A program made the translations under genes and the position numbers. Below the pieces are notes generated by a model, which saw only the letters and a list, made by a program, of their open reading frames with translations, had not been told where the DNA came from and did no database searches. Below are positions 2,325-39,428 of a DNA stretch of 64,000 bases, in pieces. How positions within the stretch are numbered: the first letter of the stretch is position 1; each line of letters starts with the position of its first letter. Source of the DNA: a virus (taxonomy: Duplodnaviria; Caudoviricetes); the IMG/VR virus record IMGVR_UViG_3300043102_000037, positions 1-64,000 of that record; one strand, 5' to 3'.

Positions 2325-4499
2325 ATGAATAACGTAAAAGAAACTAAATATGTGCAGAAGCGAGACGGCTCTATCGTTGACTTTGATGAAGATAGGATTT
2401 ATGAAGCTGTTAAAAAAGCGTCAATAAGTTCAGGCGAAAGCGTCAGAATAAGCAATATATTAAAGAAAACGCTAAAGAATCTCGCAACTAAAAATAAGGA
2501 CGTTTATACGGTCGCTGAAATTCAGACAATAGTAGAAAATGCGTTGATGAGCAGCAACTATAAAGATACGGCTCGTGCTTATATCATATATCGTAGTGAG
2601 CATGATAAAGCAAGAGAGAACATGAAAAACCTTATGTCGGCGATGTATGATATTACGTTTAAATCATCAGAAGATGTAAACGATAAGCGCGATAATGCCA
2701 ATATCAATACTGATACGGCTATGGGAGCTATGCTCAAATACGGCACTACAACGTCTAACTATTTCATCGACCATTACATTTTGCCTAAAGATATTGCAGA
2801 AGCACACATTAATGGCTATATACATATTCACGACAAAGACTTCTACGGTCTTACAGAAACGTGCTGTCAGATAGATTTAAGCAAGTTATATAAGAACGGT
2901 TTTAGCACAGGTCATGGGTATTTAAGAACACCAAATAGTATTGCTTCATATGCGTCTTTAGCAGCAATAGCCTTACAAGCCAATCAAAATGAAATGCACG
3001 GAGGACAAGCAATTCCTGCATTTGATTATTATATGGCTGATGGCATTGTAAAAACATTTAAGAAAGAATTTAAGAAAGTATGCTTAATTCTTTCTATTCC
3101 AGAACAGTTTGTTGAAAAAGTATTAAGTTTTATTACTACAATAGACTGTAAAGATATTATCTTTGAATTTCAAAAAGAAAATCTTCTTGATTACGCCAAA
3201 ATAGAAAAAGCATATAACGTAGCTTTAAGCGAAACCGATAAGGCTTGCTATCAAGCCATGGAAGGATTCGTGCATAATCTCAATACGCTTCATTCAAGGA
3301 GCGGCGGTCAAGTACCGTTCAGTTCAATAAATTACGGCACAGATACGTCACCAGAAGGAAGAATGGTCATTAGAAACCTTTTGCTTGCTACGCAGGCAGG
3401 CTTAGGTCATAATGAAACTCCTATATTTCCTGTACAGATATTTAAAGTTAAAGAAGGCATTAACTTTAACGAAGGCGACCCGAATTATGATTTATTTGAA
3501 CTTGCCATGGAAACATCGGCAAAGAGATTATTTCCTAATTTCAGCTTTATAGATTCGCCGTTTAACCTTAAATATTATAAAAAAGGCAATATTGATACTG
3601 AAATAGCTTACATGGGCTGTCGCACAAGGACTATAAGCAACGTAAATGGTCCAGAGATTTGTACAAGCCGAGGCAATTTAAGTTTTACAACTATTATATT
3701 GCCGAAGCTTGCTATTGAATCAGACCATAATATTGATACGTTCTTTGAAAAATTAGACTTTTATCTTGAATTATGCAAAAGACAATTATTGCATAGATTA
3801 AAGATACAGTCTAATAGATACGCCTTCAATTATCCATTTTTAATGGGGCAGGGCGTATGGCTTGACAGCGAAAAGCTGCACCCAGAAGATACCGTTAGAG
3901 AAGTATTAAAGCATGGTTCACTTAGTATAGGCTTTATTGGTCTTGCTGAAACTTTAATAGCTTTGGTAGGAAAGCACCATGGTGAAGATGAAAATGCAAG
4001 AGAATTAGGCTTAAAGATTATTTCTCATATGAGAGATATGACGGATAAGTTTACCGAAGAAACGCATTTAAACTTCGCACTTTTAGCTACGCCAGCCGAA
4101 GGACTTACGGGACGTGCTGCTAAGTTATTGCAGGAACAGTTTGGAATTATCGAAGGAGTTACGGACAAAGATTATTTGACTAACTCATTCCACGTTCCTC
4201 CGTATTACAAAATTAATGCGGCTAATAAAATAGCGATAGAAGCACCTTATCACTCCTTAACTAACGGCGGTCATATAACGTATGTAGAATTTGACGGCGA
4301 CCCGACAAACAATATCGAATCGTTTAAAACCGTCATTAGATACATGAAAGAACAAAATATTGGCTATGGTTCAATAAATCACCCGATAGATAGAGATTCT
4401 AAGTGCGGCTATACAGGAATAATAAATAATGAATGTCCTTGCTGCCATAGAAAAGAAACGGAAATAAGACATACTACCATAAAAAGAATTGAGGAATAA
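2325..4499 (+). CDS. nrdD: anaerobic (class III) ribonucleoside-triphosphate reductase, large chain lacking the glycyl-radical tail
   Basis: N-terminal ATP cone (VQKRDG), GYIHIHD, TCCQI, YMGCRT, RGNLSF, TPAEG, C-terminal CxxC pairs. No RITGY motif. Confidence 0.92.
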   Translation: MNNVKETKYVQKRDGSIVDFDEDRIYEAVKKASISSGESVRISNILKKTLKNLATKNKDVYTVAEIQTIVENALMSSNYKDTARAYIIYRSEHDKARENMKNLMSAMYDITFKSSEDVNDKRDNANINTDTAMGAMLKYGTTTSNYFIDHYILPKDIAEAHINGYIHIHDKDFYGLTETCCQIDLSKLYKNGFSTGHGYLRTPNSIASYASLAAIALQANQNEMHGGQAIPAFDYYMADGIVKTFKKEFKKVCLILSIPEQFVEKVLSFITTIDCKDIIFEFQKENLLDYAKIEKAYNVALSETDKACYQAMEGFVHNLNTLHSRSGGQVPFSSINYGTDTSPEGRMVIRNLLLATQAGLGHNETPIFPVQIFKVKEGINFNEGDPNYDLFELAMETSAKRLFPNFSFIDSPFNLKYYKKGNIDTEIAYMGCRTRTISNVNGPEICTSRGNLSFTTIILPKLAIESDHNIDTFFEKLDFYLELCKRQLLHRLKIQSNRYAFNYPFLMGQGVWLDSEKLHPEDTVREVLKHGSLSIGFIGLAETLIALVGKHHGEDENARELGLKIISHMRDMTDKFTEETHLNFALLATPAEGLTGRAAKLLQEQFGIIEGVTDKDYLTNSFHVPPYYKINAANKIAIEAPYHSLTNGGHITYVEFDGDPTNNIESFKTVIRYMKEQNIGYGSINHPIDRDSKCGYTGIINNECPCCHRKETEIRHTTIKRIEE

Positions 4500-8786: not shown

Positions 8787-11672
8787 TTGTACATTTCGCT
8801 TCATAATCACTATACAAATGGCAGTATAGGAGATTCAACCCTCATAACGGAAGATGCCATTAAAAAAGTCAAGTCTTTAAATATTCCTGCAATAGCTATG
8901 ACTGACCATGGTTCATTATCCAATATATATGACTTTTATCAAGTTTGTAAGAAAAACGATATAAAGCCTATTATCGGTATGGAAGCTTATGTAACGCAGG
9001 ATAGAAACATTAAAAATAAAGCTGAATTAAGAGAAAAGAATTACAGGAATTATCACCTTGTTTTATTGGCTATCAACAGCCAAGGCGTAAAAGACTTAAT
9101 AGCAATTCACAATGACGCTCAAATAAACGGTTTATTCGATAAAAGACCAAGAACAGACTTATTCGTATTATCTAAGTACGGCAAAAATATAATAGCATTG
9201 TCTGCTTGCGTAGGAGGGGAAATACCGCAGACAATATTAAACGATAAAGATTGGGTAAATAAATGCGTTAAGAAAATCAACGAATATAAAAACATATTCC
9301 ATGATTTTTATTTAGAATTGCAAATAGGCAATTTTAAAGAACAGATTTTCGTGAATAAAGCATTAGTTTACCTTGCGCATAAAACAAATACCAAACTTGT
9401 AATAACAAACGATGTACATTATTTAAATAAAGAAGATTATTTGATGCACAATTATCATGTTGCGTCATGCAACGCAGGTTTGGCAAAAAGTAAAGCTGAT
9501 GAATTAATTTATCCAGATAAAATATATTATCTTATGGCAGAAGATGAATTAAAGAGCCATGTAGTATACGATGATAAATACGTTACGGAAAAGGTCATAG
9601 ACGAAGCAATATTAAATACAGAGCGAATTGCTGATATGTGCGATGGTAAAATGGATATAGAACTGAGTATGCCGTCATTTAAAGATTTTCTGCCAGAAGG
9701 AAAAACTTCGCAGCAGGTTCTATTAGAGCATTGTACAAAAAGACTAAATTTTATAATCAACAGAGTAGAAGAACCGCACAAATACACTCCAAGATTATTA
9801 ATGGAATTAGATACGATTCATAAAATGCAGTTCGACGATTACTTCTTGATAATTAAAGACATAATAGATACGGCAAAAAAGAACAATATTGCAATAGGAA
9901 CAGGACGAGGGAGCTGTGGCGGCTCTCTCGTTAGTTTTTTATTAGGAATAACGAGAGTTGACCCGATAAAGCATAATCTTATGTTTGAAAGGTTTTTGTC
10001 AGTAAACAGAGCAGGATTACCAGATATAGACTTAGATATTGACGCAAAGAAAAGAGGTTTATTGCAGCAGTTAGTCGTTGAAAGATACGGCTTTAATCAT
10101 TGTTCTAAAGTCTATACCTTGCAATTAAGAAAAGCAAGACAGGCTATTAAAGATGCAGGCAGAGTGTTAGGCATGGATTCAAACTATGTAAACGATGAAA
10201 TATGCAAGCATATTAAAAGAATAGCCAAAACTGATGAATCTGGTGATACTACAATGGTAGAGCCAACTCTCGATGAAGCACTCGATTATTTTGATTCTTT
10301 AAAAGCGATGCGAAACAAGCATAAAGAATTATTCGATGTAGCCATAAAAATGGAGGGTTTCCCTAAAGCAAGTTCTGTCCATGCCGCAGGAATTATAATA
10401 AGCCCAAAGGATTTAAGCACGGTTATTCCGCTTGCAAGACAAAAAACAGATGAGGACGGCGAAGAAGGAAAAATATTAGTATCTACGCTTACTAAAGAAA
10501 GCATAGAGAATTTTGCCGTAAAATTTGACTTATTGGCGTTAAGCACAATAAGCTATGTAGACGACACTTTAAAGATGGCAAATATAAGCGAAAAGGAGAT
10601 TGATTTAGAGAATGAGGATTTTTATAATGACGAAAAAGTTTGGCAGTTAATTTCGTCCGAACTAACATCAGGAATATTTCAAATATCCTCTTACACATAT
10701 AAAAGCCGTATGCCATCTTTGCACCCGCACAGCTTAGATGAATTAGCTGCCTGCCTCGCGCTCGTCAGAGGTCCATGTATAGCGTCTGGACTTGATAAAA
10801 AATATATCAAAATATTAAATCATAAAGGCGTTATTGAACCATTATGCAAAGAATATTATGAAGTAACGAAGAATACTTTCTGTATACCTATTTATCAAGA
10901 ACAAATAATGCTTTTAGCAGTGGCTTTTGGCTTTGACTTGGATACTGGCTATCATTTATTAAAAGCCTGTGCTAAAAAGAAAATTAATAAAATAAAGGAG
11001 TATAAAGAAAAATTAATCTCTTGCGCAATAAATAAAGGAATACCTTTAAATATAGCCCAAAGAGTATGGAAAAACATTGAAGATAGCGGCAAATATTCTT
11101 TTAACGTATCTCATGCAACGTGCTATGCAGTTATGACTTATTTGTCAGCATGGCTAAAGGTTCATTATCCTACTGAATTTATGGCTGCATTTTTAACGCA
11201 TATATTCGAGAAAAAGAAAGACGAAAGAATTAAGCGCGAAATTATAAAGGAGATTATAGATAAAAATATCGCGTTCCTGCCGTTAGACATTAATAAATCA
11301 TCATGGAATTTTACCGTTGAAGATGGTAAAATAAGAATAGGTTTCTCTGCTGTGCAGGGAATCGGAAAGAAAAGCTATAACGTAATGTCTGCTGGCATTC
11401 CTTTTAACAGCCTACAAGAATATCATGACTTTTTTGTAGGCAAAAAGGGCTGCAATAAAACTCCGCAATATATCGCAATATTGAACGGGGCTTTTAATAA
11501 TATTGAAAATACGCCCGTAAAAGAACAAATGGTCAAATATATGACTATAAGAAAAGACAGAGAATTAAAAGAATCTAAGGATATTATCAGTATAGACAGT
11601 ACCCTAAATCAAATAGAGAGATTTTATTTCAAAACTCCTATTATGACTTTCAAGACAAGAAAAGGAGGATAA
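8787..11672 (+). CDS. dnaE: DNA polymerase III alpha subunit (DnaE-type), copy 1
   Basis: PHP motifs (HNH, TDHG, NDVHY), GRGSCGGS, PDIDLD, HAAG, KFDLL, YQEQ, YSFNVSHA. Confidence 0.93.
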   Translation: MYISLHNHYTNGSIGDSTLITEDAIKKVKSLNIPAIAMTDHGSLSNIYDFYQVCKKNDIKPIIGMEAYVTQDRNIKNKAELREKNYRNYHLVLLAINSQGVKDLIAIHNDAQINGLFDKRPRTDLFVLSKYGKNIIALSACVGGEIPQTILNDKDWVNKCVKKINEYKNIFHDFYLELQIGNFKEQIFVNKALVYLAHKTNTKLVITNDVHYLNKEDYLMHNYHVASCNAGLAKSKADELIYPDKIYYLMAEDELKSHVVYDDKYVTEKVIDEAILNTERIADMCDGKMDIELSMPSFKDFLPEGKTSQQVLLEHCTKRLNFIINRVEEPHKYTPRLLMELDTIHKMQFDDYFLIIKDIIDTAKKNNIAIGTGRGSCGGSLVSFLLGITRVDPIKHNLMFERFLSVNRAGLPDIDLDIDAKKRGLLQQLVVERYGFNHCSKVYTLQLRKARQAIKDAGRVLGMDSNYVNDEICKHIKRIAKTDESGDTTMVEPTLDEALDYFDSLKAMRNKHKELFDVAIKMEGFPKASSVHAAGIIISPKDLSTVIPLARQKTDEDGEEGKILVSTLTKESIENFAVKFDLLALSTISYVDDTLKMANISEKEIDLENEDFYNDEKVWQLISSELTSGIFQISSYTYKSRMPSLHPHSLDELAACLALVRGPCIASGLDKKYIKILNHKGVIEPLCKEYYEVTKNTFCIPIYQEQIMLLAVAFGFDLDTGYHLLKACAKKKINKIKEYKEKLISCAINKGIPLNIAQRVWKNIEDSGKYSFNVSHATCYAVMTYLSAWLKVHYPTEFMAAFLTHIFEKKKDERIKREIIKEIIDKNIAFLPLDINKSSWNFTVEDGKIRIGFSAVQGIGKKSYNVMSAGIPFNSLQEYHDFFVGKKGCNKTPQYIAILNGAFNNIENTPVKEQMVKYMTIRKDRELKESKDIISIDSTLNQIERFYFKTPIMTFKTRKGG

Positions 11673-33516: not shown

Positions 33517-36148
33517 TTAGTCTAAGGATACTGGCTTAGTATACGTTATTTGCTTATTGTCTTTAGCGTTATTCAGTGGCAGGAATTTGTTGCATATTAA
33601 GCTATTTTTGCCGTCTTTGTCTTTCATGCCGCGCACCATTACTTTATTGCCTATTTTAAAGATTTTTTCTTTATCAGCAATACTAGCATACGTTGACGCG
33701 AATACAACTCCTTCTATAAAGCAGCCATTCCAATTTAACAAGACAAAAAGCATAGGATTATTATTTTTGTCTATATAGTTCTTAATGCCTTTAAAAGTAA
33801 CTTCTTCTCCGAAGAAACCGCCGCTCTTTAAAGCCTCCCATTTTTCTTCGTAAATAACGTGTATAGGCTTATAAGTAATATAAGTGCTTAATGCTTCATC
33901 TTCCATAGCTATACATACGTCTTTATCGTATTTATTGACATCGAATTTTTCTATTTTCTTTTCTTTTCTTAAATCGTATAATTCATTCAATAATGCGTAT
34001 CTATTGCTGTTAAATGAATCAAATGCGCCTGCCTTTATTAAATTTGTTGCTACTGTTTTATTAAAAGATTTTTTCGGTATTCTGTTAAAGGCATCTTCTA
34101 AAGAAGAATACGGAGCATTTTTCATAATTTCAATAGTAGCGGCTTTAACGCCTGCTACACTGGATAAGCCATATAAAATCTCTCTTGTTTTAGGAGAAGG
34201 TGTAAAGTTATTTTTAGATATGCTTATATTAGGGCATTTTATATTAATGCCGAATCTTTTTGCTACTTTTACATACTTGCCGCGTTTTTCTTTATTTTCT
34301 TCAACGGATAATAATGCTGCGAAAAATTCAACAGGATAATGTACTTTAAGCCATGCTGTAAGCATTGTTATATATGTGTATGACGCACTATGGCTTTTAT
34401 TAAAAGCGTATGCAGCAAAACCGAGCATATAATTCCAATACTTCATAAATTCTTCTTCTGTATAGCCGTTTTTAATAGCACCTTTAATTTCATTTCCGTA
34501 ATGCGGTTTTCCAGTTAATTTATCGTAGTCATACCAAGGAGCATTAGTATCATTTTCCCAACCATCTGGTCCTTCTTTATTTATTTTGCCGTATAAATGG
34601 CAGCGTCTTAGCATTTCCATTTTATCGACTTTCTTTTTAGCTACTATTTTTCGCGTAAGAGAATCAGCCTGTCCATCGTCAAATCCAGAAACTATTTTAG
34701 ATATAAGCATTATTTGTTCTTGGTATATAATAATTCCGTATGTGCTGTTCAATACTTCTTCACAGCCGCGTATAGGATATTCTATTTTTTCATTGCCGTG
34801 CTTTCTTTTTATATACATAGTATGAAAGCCTGCTGACAGAGGACCCGGACGAAGTAATGCTGTTAAGGCTACCAAATCATCAAAACAAGTTGGCTTTAGC
34901 ATACCGAGATTAGGCTTAAACGTCTTTTCCGATTCCATCTGAAATATTCCATCGCTTTCTTTGTCAGTAAGCATTTTAAATATTTCTTCGTCTTTCATAT
35001 CAACGGATTTATAAAGCCATTCAAAATCCTTATCCTCTCCTATTGATTTAAGCGTCATATTTATTACAGATAACGTTTTTAAGCCTAATATATCGAATTT
35101 TACTAAGCCGAGTTCCTCTACTTCAACGCCTGTATATAGCGTTATAATAGTTCCTGTTTTTTTATCTTTTCTTAAAGGCACTACATCAGATATAGGACAT
35201 GGAGTTATAAGCACACCTGATGCGTGTACTCCAAGATGGCGCATACAGCCTTCAAACTTTCTGGCTAATCTAAATACTTCTTTATATTTATTTTCTAACT
35301 CCTCAAATGTTTTATATATTTCTGGGGCTGTTTCTTTTAAATCGTCATAATCCTTAAAAGTAGACTTTTCTAAATCTATCGGAATATCGCTTAACGCTTT
35401 TGTTAAATTATTGCTTTCTACATAGCTTACGCCTAATACTTTAGCAAAATCTTTAATGCCAGACGCTACACCTAAAGCAGACCATGCTCCAATATGCGAT
35501 ACGTTTTCTTTGCCGTATTTTTCTTCAAAGTATTCAATTACTCTATGACGGTTAAAGTAGTCAAAGTCTAAATCAATATCTGGATAACCTGTCCTGTCTT
35601 TGGTTAAAAAGCGTGAAAACATTAAATTATGCTCTATCGGGTTAATGTTACTCGTTACTCCGATTAAAAATAATACGACAGAGCCGCCCGCGCTGCCTCT
35701 GCCCGGACCTACTACTATGTCGTTTTTTTTGCACCATTGGACGTAATCCTGCACTATGAGCATATAATCAGCAAAGCCTTTAGAGTTAATTACTTCTAAT
35801 TCGTAATCTATTCTTTGCTGATACTTTACTATATTTATTTCTGGGTGCTTTTTATAGTATGCGTACAATCCTTGATATGCTTTTATAGTAAGTATGTCTG
35901 ACGCTGATACTCCATTGGACGCTATTTGCGGCAATAATGTTTTTTCACTGCCTATTTTTATGTCGTCAGATATTCTTTCTGCTAATTCGTTCGTTGTATC
36001 TAAGCTATTAAGATAAAACTTTGTATATTCTTTTCTGTCGCAATCCATTTCATTTAATTGCTGATTAAAATAATATATCATTTCAGCTCTATTTCTTAGC
36101 CAAAAATCATTCGAGTATTTCATTCTATCGTTATCGCTTTTAAATTGT
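33517..36148 (-). CDS. dnaE: DnaE polymerase copy 2, 3' exon (catalytic core to OB-like tail)
   Basis: GRGSAGGS, PDIDLD, HASG, KFDILGL, YQEQ, AFNKSHS. The frame stays open upstream of ATG 36123 (GQFKSDNDR) to the element junction. Confidence 0.9.
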
Positions 36149-36149
36149 C

Positions 36150-36327
36150 CTGATATATAAACTTTATAATTATTTATAAACGCTCAAAAAATTATAAGCT
36201 TGTTTCCTTGTTCAACGTGTCCGTTTTGGATTGTATTGCTACAATCTACTTACGTTTGTATGACACTCCAAAGGCGTAAATTCGGCGTTATCAACACCTA
36301 CATATTAGCATAATCTTGATATTGACT
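36150..36327 (-). ncRNA. probable omegaRNA scaffold / IS607 right end
   Basis: Non-coding 3' region of tnpB with stem-forming segments (CCGAATTTACGCCTTTGG; GATTGTAGCAATACAATC) running to the right junction. Confidence 0.65.
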
Positions 36328-37476
36328 CTATGCTAATTGATAGTTTGCTAAATTAATACTAGCGTTCTTATCTCTATCCAAAGTGAAACCACACACATCA
36401 CAGTGATACGTTCTATCCTTGAGTTTTAAATCTTTCTTGATGTTTTCACAACAGGAACACATCTTGCTTGACGGATAGAACCTATCAGCCTGAATGAACC
36501 TAATTCCGTACTTTTCGGACTTGTACTTCATAAAGCTAATGAACTGATAGAATCCCTGTTCTGCTATGGCTTTTGAAAGATGCTTGTTTTTCAACATACC
36601 TGTGACGTTTAAGTCTTCCATAACTATTCTCGATGGCTTGGTTTTCGCAATCAAATTAGTTACTTGGTGGTTATAGTCTAGGCGGATGTTCTTCAACTTT
36701 TCGTGTATAAGCTTGATTATTCGCTCTAGTTTTAAGATGTTTTGAGTCTTAACATACCTATTACCTTGGCGGTTCTTCTCATACTTCCTCGAAACTTGAC
36801 GTTGCAATCTTCTAAGTCTCTTTTTCAACTTTCTAATCTTTTGAGTTTTGTTGATATTTCCAAAAGGACTGTCGAAATTGCTAACAGTCGCAAGTTCCTT
36901 GATGCCTAAGTCAATTCCTACAGATAAGTTCTCATACAGTTCTAAAGGTTGGTTTTCATACTCAATACCTAAAGACAAATACCAGTATCGCCCATTAAAT
37001 TTTATTCTTGGATTGTATACTGATATTTTATCTTTCTTGTAATTGCCTTTAGGCAGCCTATTTTCGTCACTTATCTTGACTACACCAATCTTCTCAAGTT
37101 GTATTTGACTATCCGTAACCTTGAACTTAGTTGGTAAGTGATAGAAAGATATAGTGCTTTTCTTCTTTGACTTATGTCTAGGATACTTAGCAGCTTTCTT
37201 GAAGAACTTACTTCTAGCATTGTCAAAGTCTTTTATAGCTTGTTGTGGTATCTCTGATGAGACTTCTTTAAGCCATGGGTATTTGTTAGAGTTCCTAATC
37301 TTAGTGAAGTGCTTTCGCATAGCACCAATGCTTACAGATTTTCCGTATAGTTTATAATAAGTTTCGGAAAATCTTAACGCCCAGTTGTACGCAAATCGCA
37401 TAACACCTGCTGATTTCCACATTAAAGTCTCTTGCTCTTTCGTTGGATAGAGTTTGACTTTTATGCCTTTAATCAT
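36328..37476 (-). CDS. tnpB: TnpB (IS607-associated) RNA-guided endonuclease
   Basis: GIDLG, VMEDL, DRDKNA RuvC triad intact; CSCC...CDVC zinc finger. Confidence 0.95.
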   Translation of the reverse strand: MIKGIKVKLYPTKEQETLMWKSAGVMRFAYNWALRFSETYYKLYGKSVSIGAMRKHFTKIRNSNKYPWLKEVSSEIPQQAIKDFDNARSKFFKKAAKYPRHKSKKKSTISFYHLPTKFKVTDSQIQLEKIGVVKISDENRLPKGNYKKDKISVYNPRIKFNGRYWYLSLGIEYENQPLELYENLSVGIDLGIKELATVSNFDSPFGNINKTQKIRKLKKRLRRLQRQVSRKYEKNRQGNRYVKTQNILKLERIIKLIHEKLKNIRLDYNHQVTNLIAKTKPSRIVMEDLNVTGMLKNKHLSKAIAEQGFYQFISFMKYKSEKYGIRFIQADRFYPSSKMCSCCENIKKDLKLKDRTYHCDVCGFTLDRDKNASINLANYQLA

Positions 37477-38080
37477 CTTCAGACAACTCCTTAATTATCT
37501 TTTTGGTTTTATTAGCTCTTTTTCCTTGTAATCTACAACTGAATATAGTTATTATTTGGATTAAATCTTCGACAATTTCTTCTTCGTCACTTCTTTCGGT
37601 GCTATCAATTATTTCAATCTCAACACTCTTAGACATACAAATATTTTCTATTAATTCGTATCCAAATCTAACCAATCTATCCTTATATAGAATTATGATT
37701 TTAGAAACTTCCTCATTTAAAACCATACTCATAAGCTTGTTCAAGCCTTTATTTTGATAATTAATTCCGCTACCTATATCCGAGATTATTGAAAACTGAT
37801 AGCCTTTAGCATACATATACATCTTGACGTTTTCAATTTGCCTATCTAAAGCTTCTTTTTGCTTTTGACTAGACACTCTACAGTAGCCTATTGTCTGCTT
37901 AGATTTTACTTTCTCACCATTATAAATTTTAAGTTGTTCATCGGTATAATAGCGATAACCTGTCACCTCATCCACATACGCAGGTTTTAGTTTACCACTT
38001 TTATCCCAATTTCTTAAAGTTTGTTCTGTACGATTTATTAATTTAGCAAATTGTCCTATGGAATATTTTCTAATTTCCAT
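37469..38080 (-). CDS. tnpA: IS607 transposase (MerR-like HTH + serine recombinase)
   Basis: YSIGQFAK...TLRNWD HTH; GYCRVSS..QK; DIGSGIN; YKDRLVRFG. Confidence 0.95.
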   Translation of the reverse strand: MEIRKYSIGQFAKLINRTEQTLRNWDKSGKLKPAYVDEVTGYRYYTDEQLKIYNGEKVKSKQTIGYCRVSSQKQKEALDRQIENVKMYMYAKGYQFSIISDIGSGINYQNKGLNKLMSMVLNEEVSKIIILYKDRLVRFGYELIENICMSKSVEIEIIDSTERSDEEEIVEDLIQIITIFSCRLQGKRANKTKKIIKELSEDD

Positions 38081-38171
38081 GCTTTATCACCTCTTGTACT
38101 AATTACAACATAAACATTGTAATATGTCAAGAGTTATTTTGAGTATTTATAAATAATTATAAAGTTTATAT

Positions 38172-38598
38172 CTTTTACTATAGAACGCAACTTCTATAAC
38201 GCTATTTCGCTCGCGCTAATAGCCACTCTCTTTCGAGACGTGCAAAGACTATTTCTTCACCCTCACCATTACGAGTTAGGGGCAAACCGCTTCCACTACC
38301 ATAAGCTTGTAGTGTACTCCATCTCTGGATAGTCGTTGAAGTTTCTCCGTGCCTTGCGGTTTAGGAGTTTACCTGCATGAACAACCATTGTTATCGGTTA
38401 TTTAGGATTTAACCTTGTAACCATCCTTACGTTGTTTCTACTTTCGTACCATCGTAGCGTGATTTCTCCACTACTGTGGTGTAAGGCTTTAGGTATTACC
38501 TGCAATTCAATTTGTGTGCTACGCTCGTTTCCGAACGTACCCAGCCGAAAACTCTATAATTTTATGGTTTTATTATAGTTAACTATAAAGTTTTCAAT
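38172..38598 (-). ncRNA. group I intron ribozyme core
   Basis: P AAUUGCAGGUAA (38507-38496), Q UUCAUGCAG (38381-38373), R UUCAACGACUA (38340-38330), S AAGAAAUAGUCU (38257-38246). P7 GACUA/UAGUC, P3 CAAAUUG/CGGUUUG, P1 CAGU/GCUG with terminal U.G. Confidence 0.9.
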
Positions 38599-39428
38599 AC
38601 TGTATTTACGCATAATAAAGAATCATGGTCGTCATGGTCGCTTTCTTTTAAATAGTGTACGTCATTAGTAGCTATTGTTTTTATGTCGTGCTTTTTAGAC
38701 ATTTTCATATAAAATAAATTAGTTGCATATTGCCTGTCTAAACATAACGGCTGAATTTCTAAATAGAACCTGTCGCCAAACACTTCTTTAAAAGCGAGAA
38801 TTGCTTTTTCAGCTTCATCTTTTTTATTGTCGGCTATCAAATGTGAAAAATAACTGCCTATACAAGCCGCTGTACATATAATGCCTTCACTATACTTTTT
38901 AATCATTTCTAAATCGCATACAAATCTGCCGTTATATAAGCATTTTAAAGCGGCTTCACTTTGAAGTTTAACGAGATTATTCCAACCAGTTTGATTAATA
39001 GCCAGAAATAAAATGTGATATTGCGTCATGCAATATTCATAAGGTTCTATTTCTTTTTTATATTTCTTGTATATATCTTTAAATGATTTATTATCCGTTA
39101 TCTCTGGCAGATTTAAGTCAAGATTAAGGCTGTCATTACGATAGTCATTATAAGCTATTTTATGGCGTTCTTCCGCCGATAGTGCCATAATATTAGTGTC
39201 TGGAGTATAATACATCTCTACGCCGAGTATAGGCTTAATATCATTTAATTTGCATTGTGTTTGGAAAGCATATGTGCCGCCCAAATGATTGTGGTCTGTT
39301 ATCGCAATAGCTTTCATATTAAATTCTTTCGCCCTGTTTATAAGTTCATCTAAACGGCAAGCACCGTCCAATAAAGAATATATGGTATGTACATGAAGAT
39401 GTACAAAATTCTTTTCTTCTTTTGACAT
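38599..39428 (-). CDS. dnaE: DnaE polymerase copy 2, 5' exon (PHP domain)
   Basis: HLHVH, AITDH, HILFLA, NDVHY...HDSLLCVNT; the track ORF runs only a few codons into the element. Confidence 0.9.

Follow-up and report, generated by a model that had tools for sequence, protein, structure and literature searches.

The window, a 64,000-nt stretch of the IMG/VR virus record IMGVR_UViG_3300043102_000037, carries an IStron, in which a group I intron is joined to the transposase and nuclease genes of an IS607-family insertion sequence (IS). The full record is 89.5 kb long, with a completeness estimate of 38%. The IStron occupies 2450 nt (36150..38599) and lies inside dnaE2, a DnaE-type polymerase gene of a large phage; all features of the finding are on the minus strand. 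The element is very probably an intact group B (IS607-family) IStron that has transposed into the sequence ACAG/G of dnaE2 (here and below a slash marks an element boundary). Its exact boundaries, all of its parts, and the joint movement of intron and transposon are established. Judging from its sequence, the IStron is probably active.

Removal of the element restores dnaE2

The element starts with TATTGAAAAC... and ends with ...TATATATCAG. The boundaries read ...GTAAATACAG/TATTGAAAAC... at 38600/38599 and ...TATATATCAG/GACAATTTAAAAGC... at 36150/36149. CAG is present at both ends, which makes the DNA cross-over point ambiguous within 3 nt, and the product is identical wherever the cross-over falls.

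Before joining, the two parts of the gene were called as separate open reading frames (ORFs), a PHP-domain frame at 38583-39428 and an 868-aa frame at 33517-36123. Exon 1 (38600..39428) encodes the PHP domain (PF02811, E 6.8e-43), is colinear with the DnaE of viral contig L016 and has the 3' end ...GTAAATACAG. Exon 2 (33517..36149) encodes the Pol III alpha NTPase, finger and HHH domains with the polymerase motif PDIDLDF. Joining 38600 to 36149 generated the codons ACA GGA CAA and a 1153-aa frame with zero internal stops. The joined DnaE2 is 48% identical over 1144 aa to the uninterrupted 1122-aa DnaE of L016, which comes from a related phage. The alignment is gapless across the junction, where LLCVNT-GQFKSDNDRMKYSNDFW in the joined protein corresponds to LLCIGTNKKKNDTNRMKYSNDFW in L016. 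Both the N-terminal HxH and PDIDLDF are kept. The closest polymerase from an isolate is 35% identical to the DnaE of this phage.

An earlier note, made from the sequence alone, had placed an IS607-type IStron at 36150-38599, where it separates the PHP domain of a phage dnaE from the polymerase domain. The coordinates hold, with the dnaE2 frame restored colinear with L016, and the identification is confirmed by the Rfam, Pfam and PDB matches and the sister copies described below. A DnaE that is naturally split into two polypeptides was also considered and was rejected, as dnaE1 and the L016 gene are single frames and the ATG at 36123 has no ribosome-binding site.

dnaE1 is a second DnaE-type gene in the window (8787-11672, plus strand). 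It is intact, encodes 961 aa with a PDIDLD motif, and its product is 30% identical to DnaE2. Because the phage carries this second intact dnaE, the name 'replicative polymerase' that the earlier note gave to dnaE2 is uncertain; its identification of the element stands, including a 3' end that serves as splice site and guide-RNA junction alike.

In related large phages, the dnaE2 orthologue is broken at another place. In L017 (6015-7336), and also in L018, an insert of ~1.3 kb encodes a 329-aa LAGLIDADG protein and is either an intron or an intein. The dnaE2 polymerase gene draws different selfish elements, an IStron here and the LAGLIDADG insert in L017 and L018, with the L016 gene uninterrupted.

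Sister copies and mobility

Related copies were found at three other sites. The whole element in contig L004 is 95% identical and that in L006 is 75% identical to the window copy. Both lie inside tape-measure genes, flanked by TTTACAG/...ATCAG/AGTAAT and TTAACAG/...ATCAG/CACAAT respectively, and in both cases the exons join in frame. A fourth copy follows GAGACAG/ in L031, a contig of a Ruminococcus metagenome-assembled genome (MAG); its right end is beyond the contig edge. The 5' flank ACAG is common to all four copies, and ATCAG is found at all three right ends that are present (window, L004 and L006). Because sister copies at other sites have the same ends, the intron and the transposon move as one unit.

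A related IStron with an intron 76% identical to that of the window is present in a Turicibacter MAG (L032:2739-4870). Its ends are ACGG/...TCGG/, which makes the AG-ended elements close variants of the usual GG-ended type. By sequence comparison, L032 and the window represent a natural switch of core dinucleotide, and probably also of target motif, among close relatives.

A tnpB-only remnant in L005 (3924-5330) encodes a TnpB that is 87% identical and retains the last ~80 nt of tnpA, without intron or left end. It ends ATCGG instead of ATCAG and is intergenic in an unrelated, GC-richer phage contig. The records of L004, L005 and L006 contain no dnaE2 homologue, and the window's own record contains no tape-measure homologue. 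Megablast of the locus against isolated phages produced no match. TnpB homologues with 50-56% identity were found in 179 isolated phage records, among them c-st, D-1873 and Bacillus, Fusobacterium and Twort-like phages.

The group I ribozyme and the predicted splice junction

The core of the group I intron, from P2 to P9, lies at 38224..38573. The earlier note had proposed group I covariance models as a check, and a narrow 421-nt Rfam search, repeated in a genome search, identified Intron_gpI (RF00028) at 38573-38224 over the full length of the model (1-253; 46.6 bits, E 7e-11). Within the match, R (UUCAACGACUA) and S (GAAGAAAUAGUC) have their classical form, P3 to P8 are present, and P9 is a hairpin with a GAAA cap. 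RNAalifold, applied to an alignment of 3 IStron copies, identified 13 base pairs with compensatory changes. Between the window and L006 the intron is 85% identical, compared with 78% for tnpA, 75% for the omega region and 74% for tnpB.

An intron with no ORF is present in L004 (6092-6471). Its core is 92% identical to the IStron core, and it passes the Rfam gathering score with 53.2 bits over the full model. This intron and the L004 IStron share one tape-measure gene, with the intron ~760 nt downstream of the IStron and near the gene's 3' end. It differs from the IStron in P1-P2, P7.1/7.2 and P9, and lacks the inverted-repeat (IR) stem. The shared core suggests that ribozyme cores have been exchanged between plain introns and IStrons.

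Further matches to the intron core lie in unannotated gaps within split genes of isolated phages, such as the gap in the portal gene of Staphylococcus phage SA11 (NC_019511.1, L019:2422-3048). This gap contains an intron-core match (2501-2629) and a RAGATH-18 motif (2917-3006, 60.6 bits) and no tnpB; it resembles a derived IStron without ORFs, here in a Silviavirus. A search with a 26-nt intron-core pattern found nothing beyond two sister contigs already known.

The same RNAalifold analysis predicts P1 and the enclosed P2 at 38542..38602, with the P2 hairpin at 38595-38547. In the predicted P1, CAG/U (38602-38599) pairs with GCUG (38545-38542), such that the exon G pairs with C and a U.G wobble falls at intron position +1. 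A P1 with the U.G one position inside the intron has been described for group B IStrons, and splicing after the exon G was demonstrated experimentally for BcISt1 (PMC4227781; PMC13565253).

The U.G wobble at +1 raises the alternative that the U.G rule is kept and the cuts fall after U38599 and G36149. The spliced message would then read ACA GUA CAA and encode Val where DNA excision leaves Gly. A second G follows CAG at this site, so the shifted product would stay in frame. CAG is followed by A in L004 and by C in L006, where the same shift would break both tape-measure frames; in addition, BcISt1 splices after G (PMC4227781; PMC13565253). We consider shifted splicing unlikely, and splicing after the exon G remains the preferred reading.

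Transposon genes, end motif and inverted-repeat stem

tnpA (37469..38080) encodes an IS607-type serine recombinase of 203 aa with Pfam MerR HTH and Resolvase domains and the catalytic RVSS motif. Its PDB matches are the catalytic domains of IS607-family serine recombinases, namely 3lhk (MJ0014, E 6e-33), ISC1904 ORF1 (E 7e-31) and ISC1926 TnpA (E 2e-29). tnpB (36328..37476) encodes a predicted RNA-guided nuclease of 382 aa with Pfam HTH_OrfB_IS605, OrfB_IS605 and Cas12f1-like TNB domains. The best PDB match is 8iaz (E 1e-66, 384 aa), and ISDra2 TnpB was also matched (E 3e-35). The alignment places GIDLG, MEDLN and DRDKNA as the RuvC motifs with their D/E/D residues, and the CxxC...CxxC zinc finger is present. 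Both genes are intact with the catalytic motifs in place.

The two genes are enclosed by a long IR stem. Its 5' arm (38137..38171) is an internal copy of the IS607 end motif and comprises 35 nt that are 94% complementary to 36155-36189. When 38171-38137 is paired with 36189-36155, 33/35 positions are paired, ~89% of the stem is A/T, and a 2-kb loop containing tnpA and tnpB is closed. As RNA the duplex was calculated at -35 kcal/mol, compared with -5 for a local hairpin in the 3' arm. One compensatory change in the stem was found in L006. Only AUCAG separates the stem from the 3' splice site. The possibility that this inverted repeat is an assembly scar was rejected, as group B IStrons are known to have this IR stem.

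The 21-nt IS607 end motif has a further copy at the left end of the element, inside P2 (38573..38593). It forms an inverted repeat with 36159-36179 (86%) and a direct repeat with 38147-38167. This third copy, at the true left end, fits with recognition of the whole IStron by TnpA.

The end-motif copies bear on whether the mobile unit is smaller than the IStron. In principle, a group I intron resident in dnaE2 could have been invaded later by a plain IS607 element, with only the IS (38171-36150) being mobile. The internal end-motif copy and the right end do form a near-perfect 35-bp inverted repeat, as in IS607 ends; an ORF-less intron with a 92% identical core is present in L004; and excision of only the IS part has been reported for BcISt1 (PMC4227781). 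On the other side, the intron-plus-IS unit has the same 5' end, ACAG/TA..., at four unrelated sites, the right ends in L004 and L006 are also ...ATCAG/, and the true left end has its own end-motif copy. Such nesting is highly improbable for the present element; it probably reflects how the family arose, not what it is today. The IStron as a single mobile unit is the reading retained below.

Putative guide RNA and target

A RAGATH-18 motif (RF03064) was identified at 36204..36274, starting 53 nt downstream of tnpB. It scored 69.6 bits, compared with a gathering score of 44.9, and forms the core of the omegaRNA/reRNA scaffold; RAGATH-18 is the scaffold of the guide RNAs of IS607 TnpB proteins (PMC11061315). 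The 3' part of the scaffold (36150..36203) contains the 3' IR arm (36155-36189) and terminates in AUCAG, whose last G, 36150, is both the predicted 3' splice site and the right end of the element; L004 and L006 share this conserved right-end sequence.

Directly after the scaffold, exon 2 opens with the putative 20-nt guide GACAATTTAAAAGCGATAAC (36130..36149), exactly the sequence that the earlier note had quoted. We infer that 36149-36130 serves as the guide from this position and by analogy with IS607 TnpB systems (PMC11061315; 10.1101/2023.11.20.567912). A 13-nt stretch of the guide region (36130-36142) is 92% complementary to 37947-37959 inside tnpA on the same transcript, which is probably due to chance.

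The window was searched for sites with at most 3 mismatches to ACAG plus the guide. This returned a single site, the right junction of the element itself, where TCAG stands instead of ACAG; a T at position -4 would thus set self apart from a target with A. The homologous site in dnaE1 reads AAC GCA GGT and, as the earlier note had pointed out, has CAGG and no guide match. L016, the nearest uninterrupted homologue, has ACAA at the site, with no ACAG motif and no guide match. An empty version of the L004 tape-measure junction was searched for and was not found.

Evidence bearing on an active element

Several findings weigh against an intact and active IStron. The Intron_gpI score is 3.4 bits below the gathering score of 50, and no group I intron was detected in whole-window or 3-kb Rfam scans. 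The terminal base of the 5' exon is G instead of U. A second intact dnaE is present, and dnaE2 could be dispensable. The promoter-like site upstream of tnpA (38102-38130, minus strand) is TTGACA-17-TGTAAT, compared with TTGACA-17-TATAAT in L004 and L006, and expression of tnpA and tnpB from the internal promoter may be weaker in the window copy. Only four 5' flanks define the putative ACAG target motif. Finally, neither a 20-mer spanning the empty junction nor exact matching of the exon 1 end and the exon 2 start recovered an IStron-free dnaE2 allele. The 20-mer gave 5 matches in viral and metagenome contigs, which were rejected as chance because they extend over 20-21 nt and lack DnaE homology.

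Two of these points, the second dnaE and the Rfam score, could also mean that the insertion is dead, with dnaE2 inactivated, no splicing, and the phage replicating with dnaE1. Both exons are, however, open, in frame and colinear with the homologue, and the catalytic motifs are kept, although a recent insertion could look intact without selection. Conservation within the element is highest in the ribozyme, which also has compensatory pairs, and the sister copies in tape-measure genes also leave their exons in frame. A dead insertion is very unlikely on this evidence.

Proposed working of the element

An intact IStron at this site would work as follows. The dnaE2 pre-mRNA would be transcribed through the element. 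The AU-rich IR stem (38171-38137 with 36189-36155) would close the 2-kb tnpA-tnpB loop and bring the terminal G 36150 to the ribozyme core. The intron would be spliced after exon G 38600, as in BcISt1, restoring ...CVNT-G-QFKS... in DnaE2. In unspliced RNA, TnpB would bind the 3' region as its guide RNA, in which the RAGATH-18 scaffold and the 3' IR arm are followed by ~20 nt from the start of exon 2. Splicing and guide formation would be mutually exclusive, because splicing severs the scaffold from the guide. The guide would direct cutting of an IStron-free allele that has ACAG followed by the exon-2 sequence, and repair from the IStron-bearing copy would reinstall or spread the element. TnpA would move the element between ACAG sites via the AG core dinucleotide.

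The mechanism in the earlier note, in which splicing competes with omegaRNA formation and TnpB guides homing to alleles that lack the IStron, is the model published for IS607 IStrons (10.1101/2023.11.20.567912). By analogy it is plausible that this mechanism operates here, and homing between phages would follow from the same model. A further suggestion is offered tentatively and is more doubtful than not. In the phage IStron lineage with the AG core and ACAG motif, TnpB and its exon-derived guide might act as an RNA-programmed homing endonuclease between co-infecting phages, cutting IStron-free dnaE2 or tape-measure alleles so that the element is copied in or the competitor is excluded. If true, phages would have an RNA-guided equivalent of the homing and interference competition associated with intron endonucleases.

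The dnaE2 element is a natural IStron with ribozyme, transposase, nuclease and guide RNA all intact, in a core replication gene of an uncultivated large phage. Given the dnaE2 copy and the sister copies in tape-measure genes, IStrons circulate among essential phage genes, where tolerance of an IStron by the phage requires splicing. The locus offers a concrete test system for TnpB-driven intron homing between co-infecting genomes, so far proposed in reviews only. The CAG and CGG ends among close relatives offer a natural contrast in the choice of target motif and core dinucleotide.

Comparison with known systems

A 2014 paper described group B IStrons, with phage-borne examples in c-st and D-1873, both phages of C. 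botulinum (PMC4227781). Known members are BcISt1, CbISt1-4 (two of them in c-st and D-1873), CboIStron and CseIStron (PMC4227781; 10.1101/2023.11.20.567912). The group is defined by a long (15-34 bp), >80% AU IR stem around the ORFs, and a GG-ending insertion site and a CGG terminus are usual (PMC4227781). The dnaE2 element has the 5' group I ribozyme followed by an IS607 serine recombinase and TnpB on the intron strand, the long AU-rich IR stem around the ORFs, and a host frame restored on removal. As in other group B IStrons, the 5' exon ends in G with U.G one position into the intron, the splice site and the scaffold-guide junction coincide at the 3' end, and insertion is in a protein-coding gene, phage genes being among the known sites. 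Its TnpB is ~54% identical to the c-st copy. It differs from the usual members in its ends, ACAG/...CAG/ in place of (A/T)GGG/...CGG/, with an AG core and a putative ACAG motif, and in its host gene, a phage dnaE.

The element is of the rarer AG/CAG-ended type represented by CsISt1 of Clostridium sporogenes, the only group B IStron previously described with insertion after AG and a CAG terminus (PMC4227781). CsISt1, which we compare here by its published description, is reported to have ORF B only and to lie in a bacterial chromosome (PMC4227781), whereas both ORFs are intact in the dnaE2 element and the host is a phage. The element thus belongs to a described class and does not reveal a new mechanism. 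The novel points are the host gene, a DnaE in a new large-phage lineage, the presence of all IStron genes in an AG-ended member, and evidence that a phage-borne lineage inserts into essential genes.

The nuclease module resembles ISFba1, an IS607 element whose TnpB uses a reRNA derived from RAGATH-18 (PMC11061315). In both, tnpB is followed by RAGATH-18 and encodes the RuvC D/E/D residues and a zinc finger, and the best PDB match, 8iaz, is taken as the ISFba1 TnpB structure because PMC11061315 cites this entry. For IS607 TnpB systems with a RAGATH-18-derived reRNA, the published target motifs are AGGAG, GAGGG or TGGG (PMC11061315), in contrast to the putative ACAG and the intron fusion found here.

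TnpB-driven intron homing in IStrons has been discussed in a 2026 review (PMC13565253). By analogy, the element also resembles phage group I introns with homing endonucleases such as that of PhiPA3 (PMC11620839), in which a self-splicing intron in an essential phage gene is paired with a nuclease able to cut intron-less alleles of co-infecting phages. Unlike the PhiPA3 intron endonuclease, the nuclease here would be guided by RNA, the flanking exon determining its target, and the element has a transposase as well.

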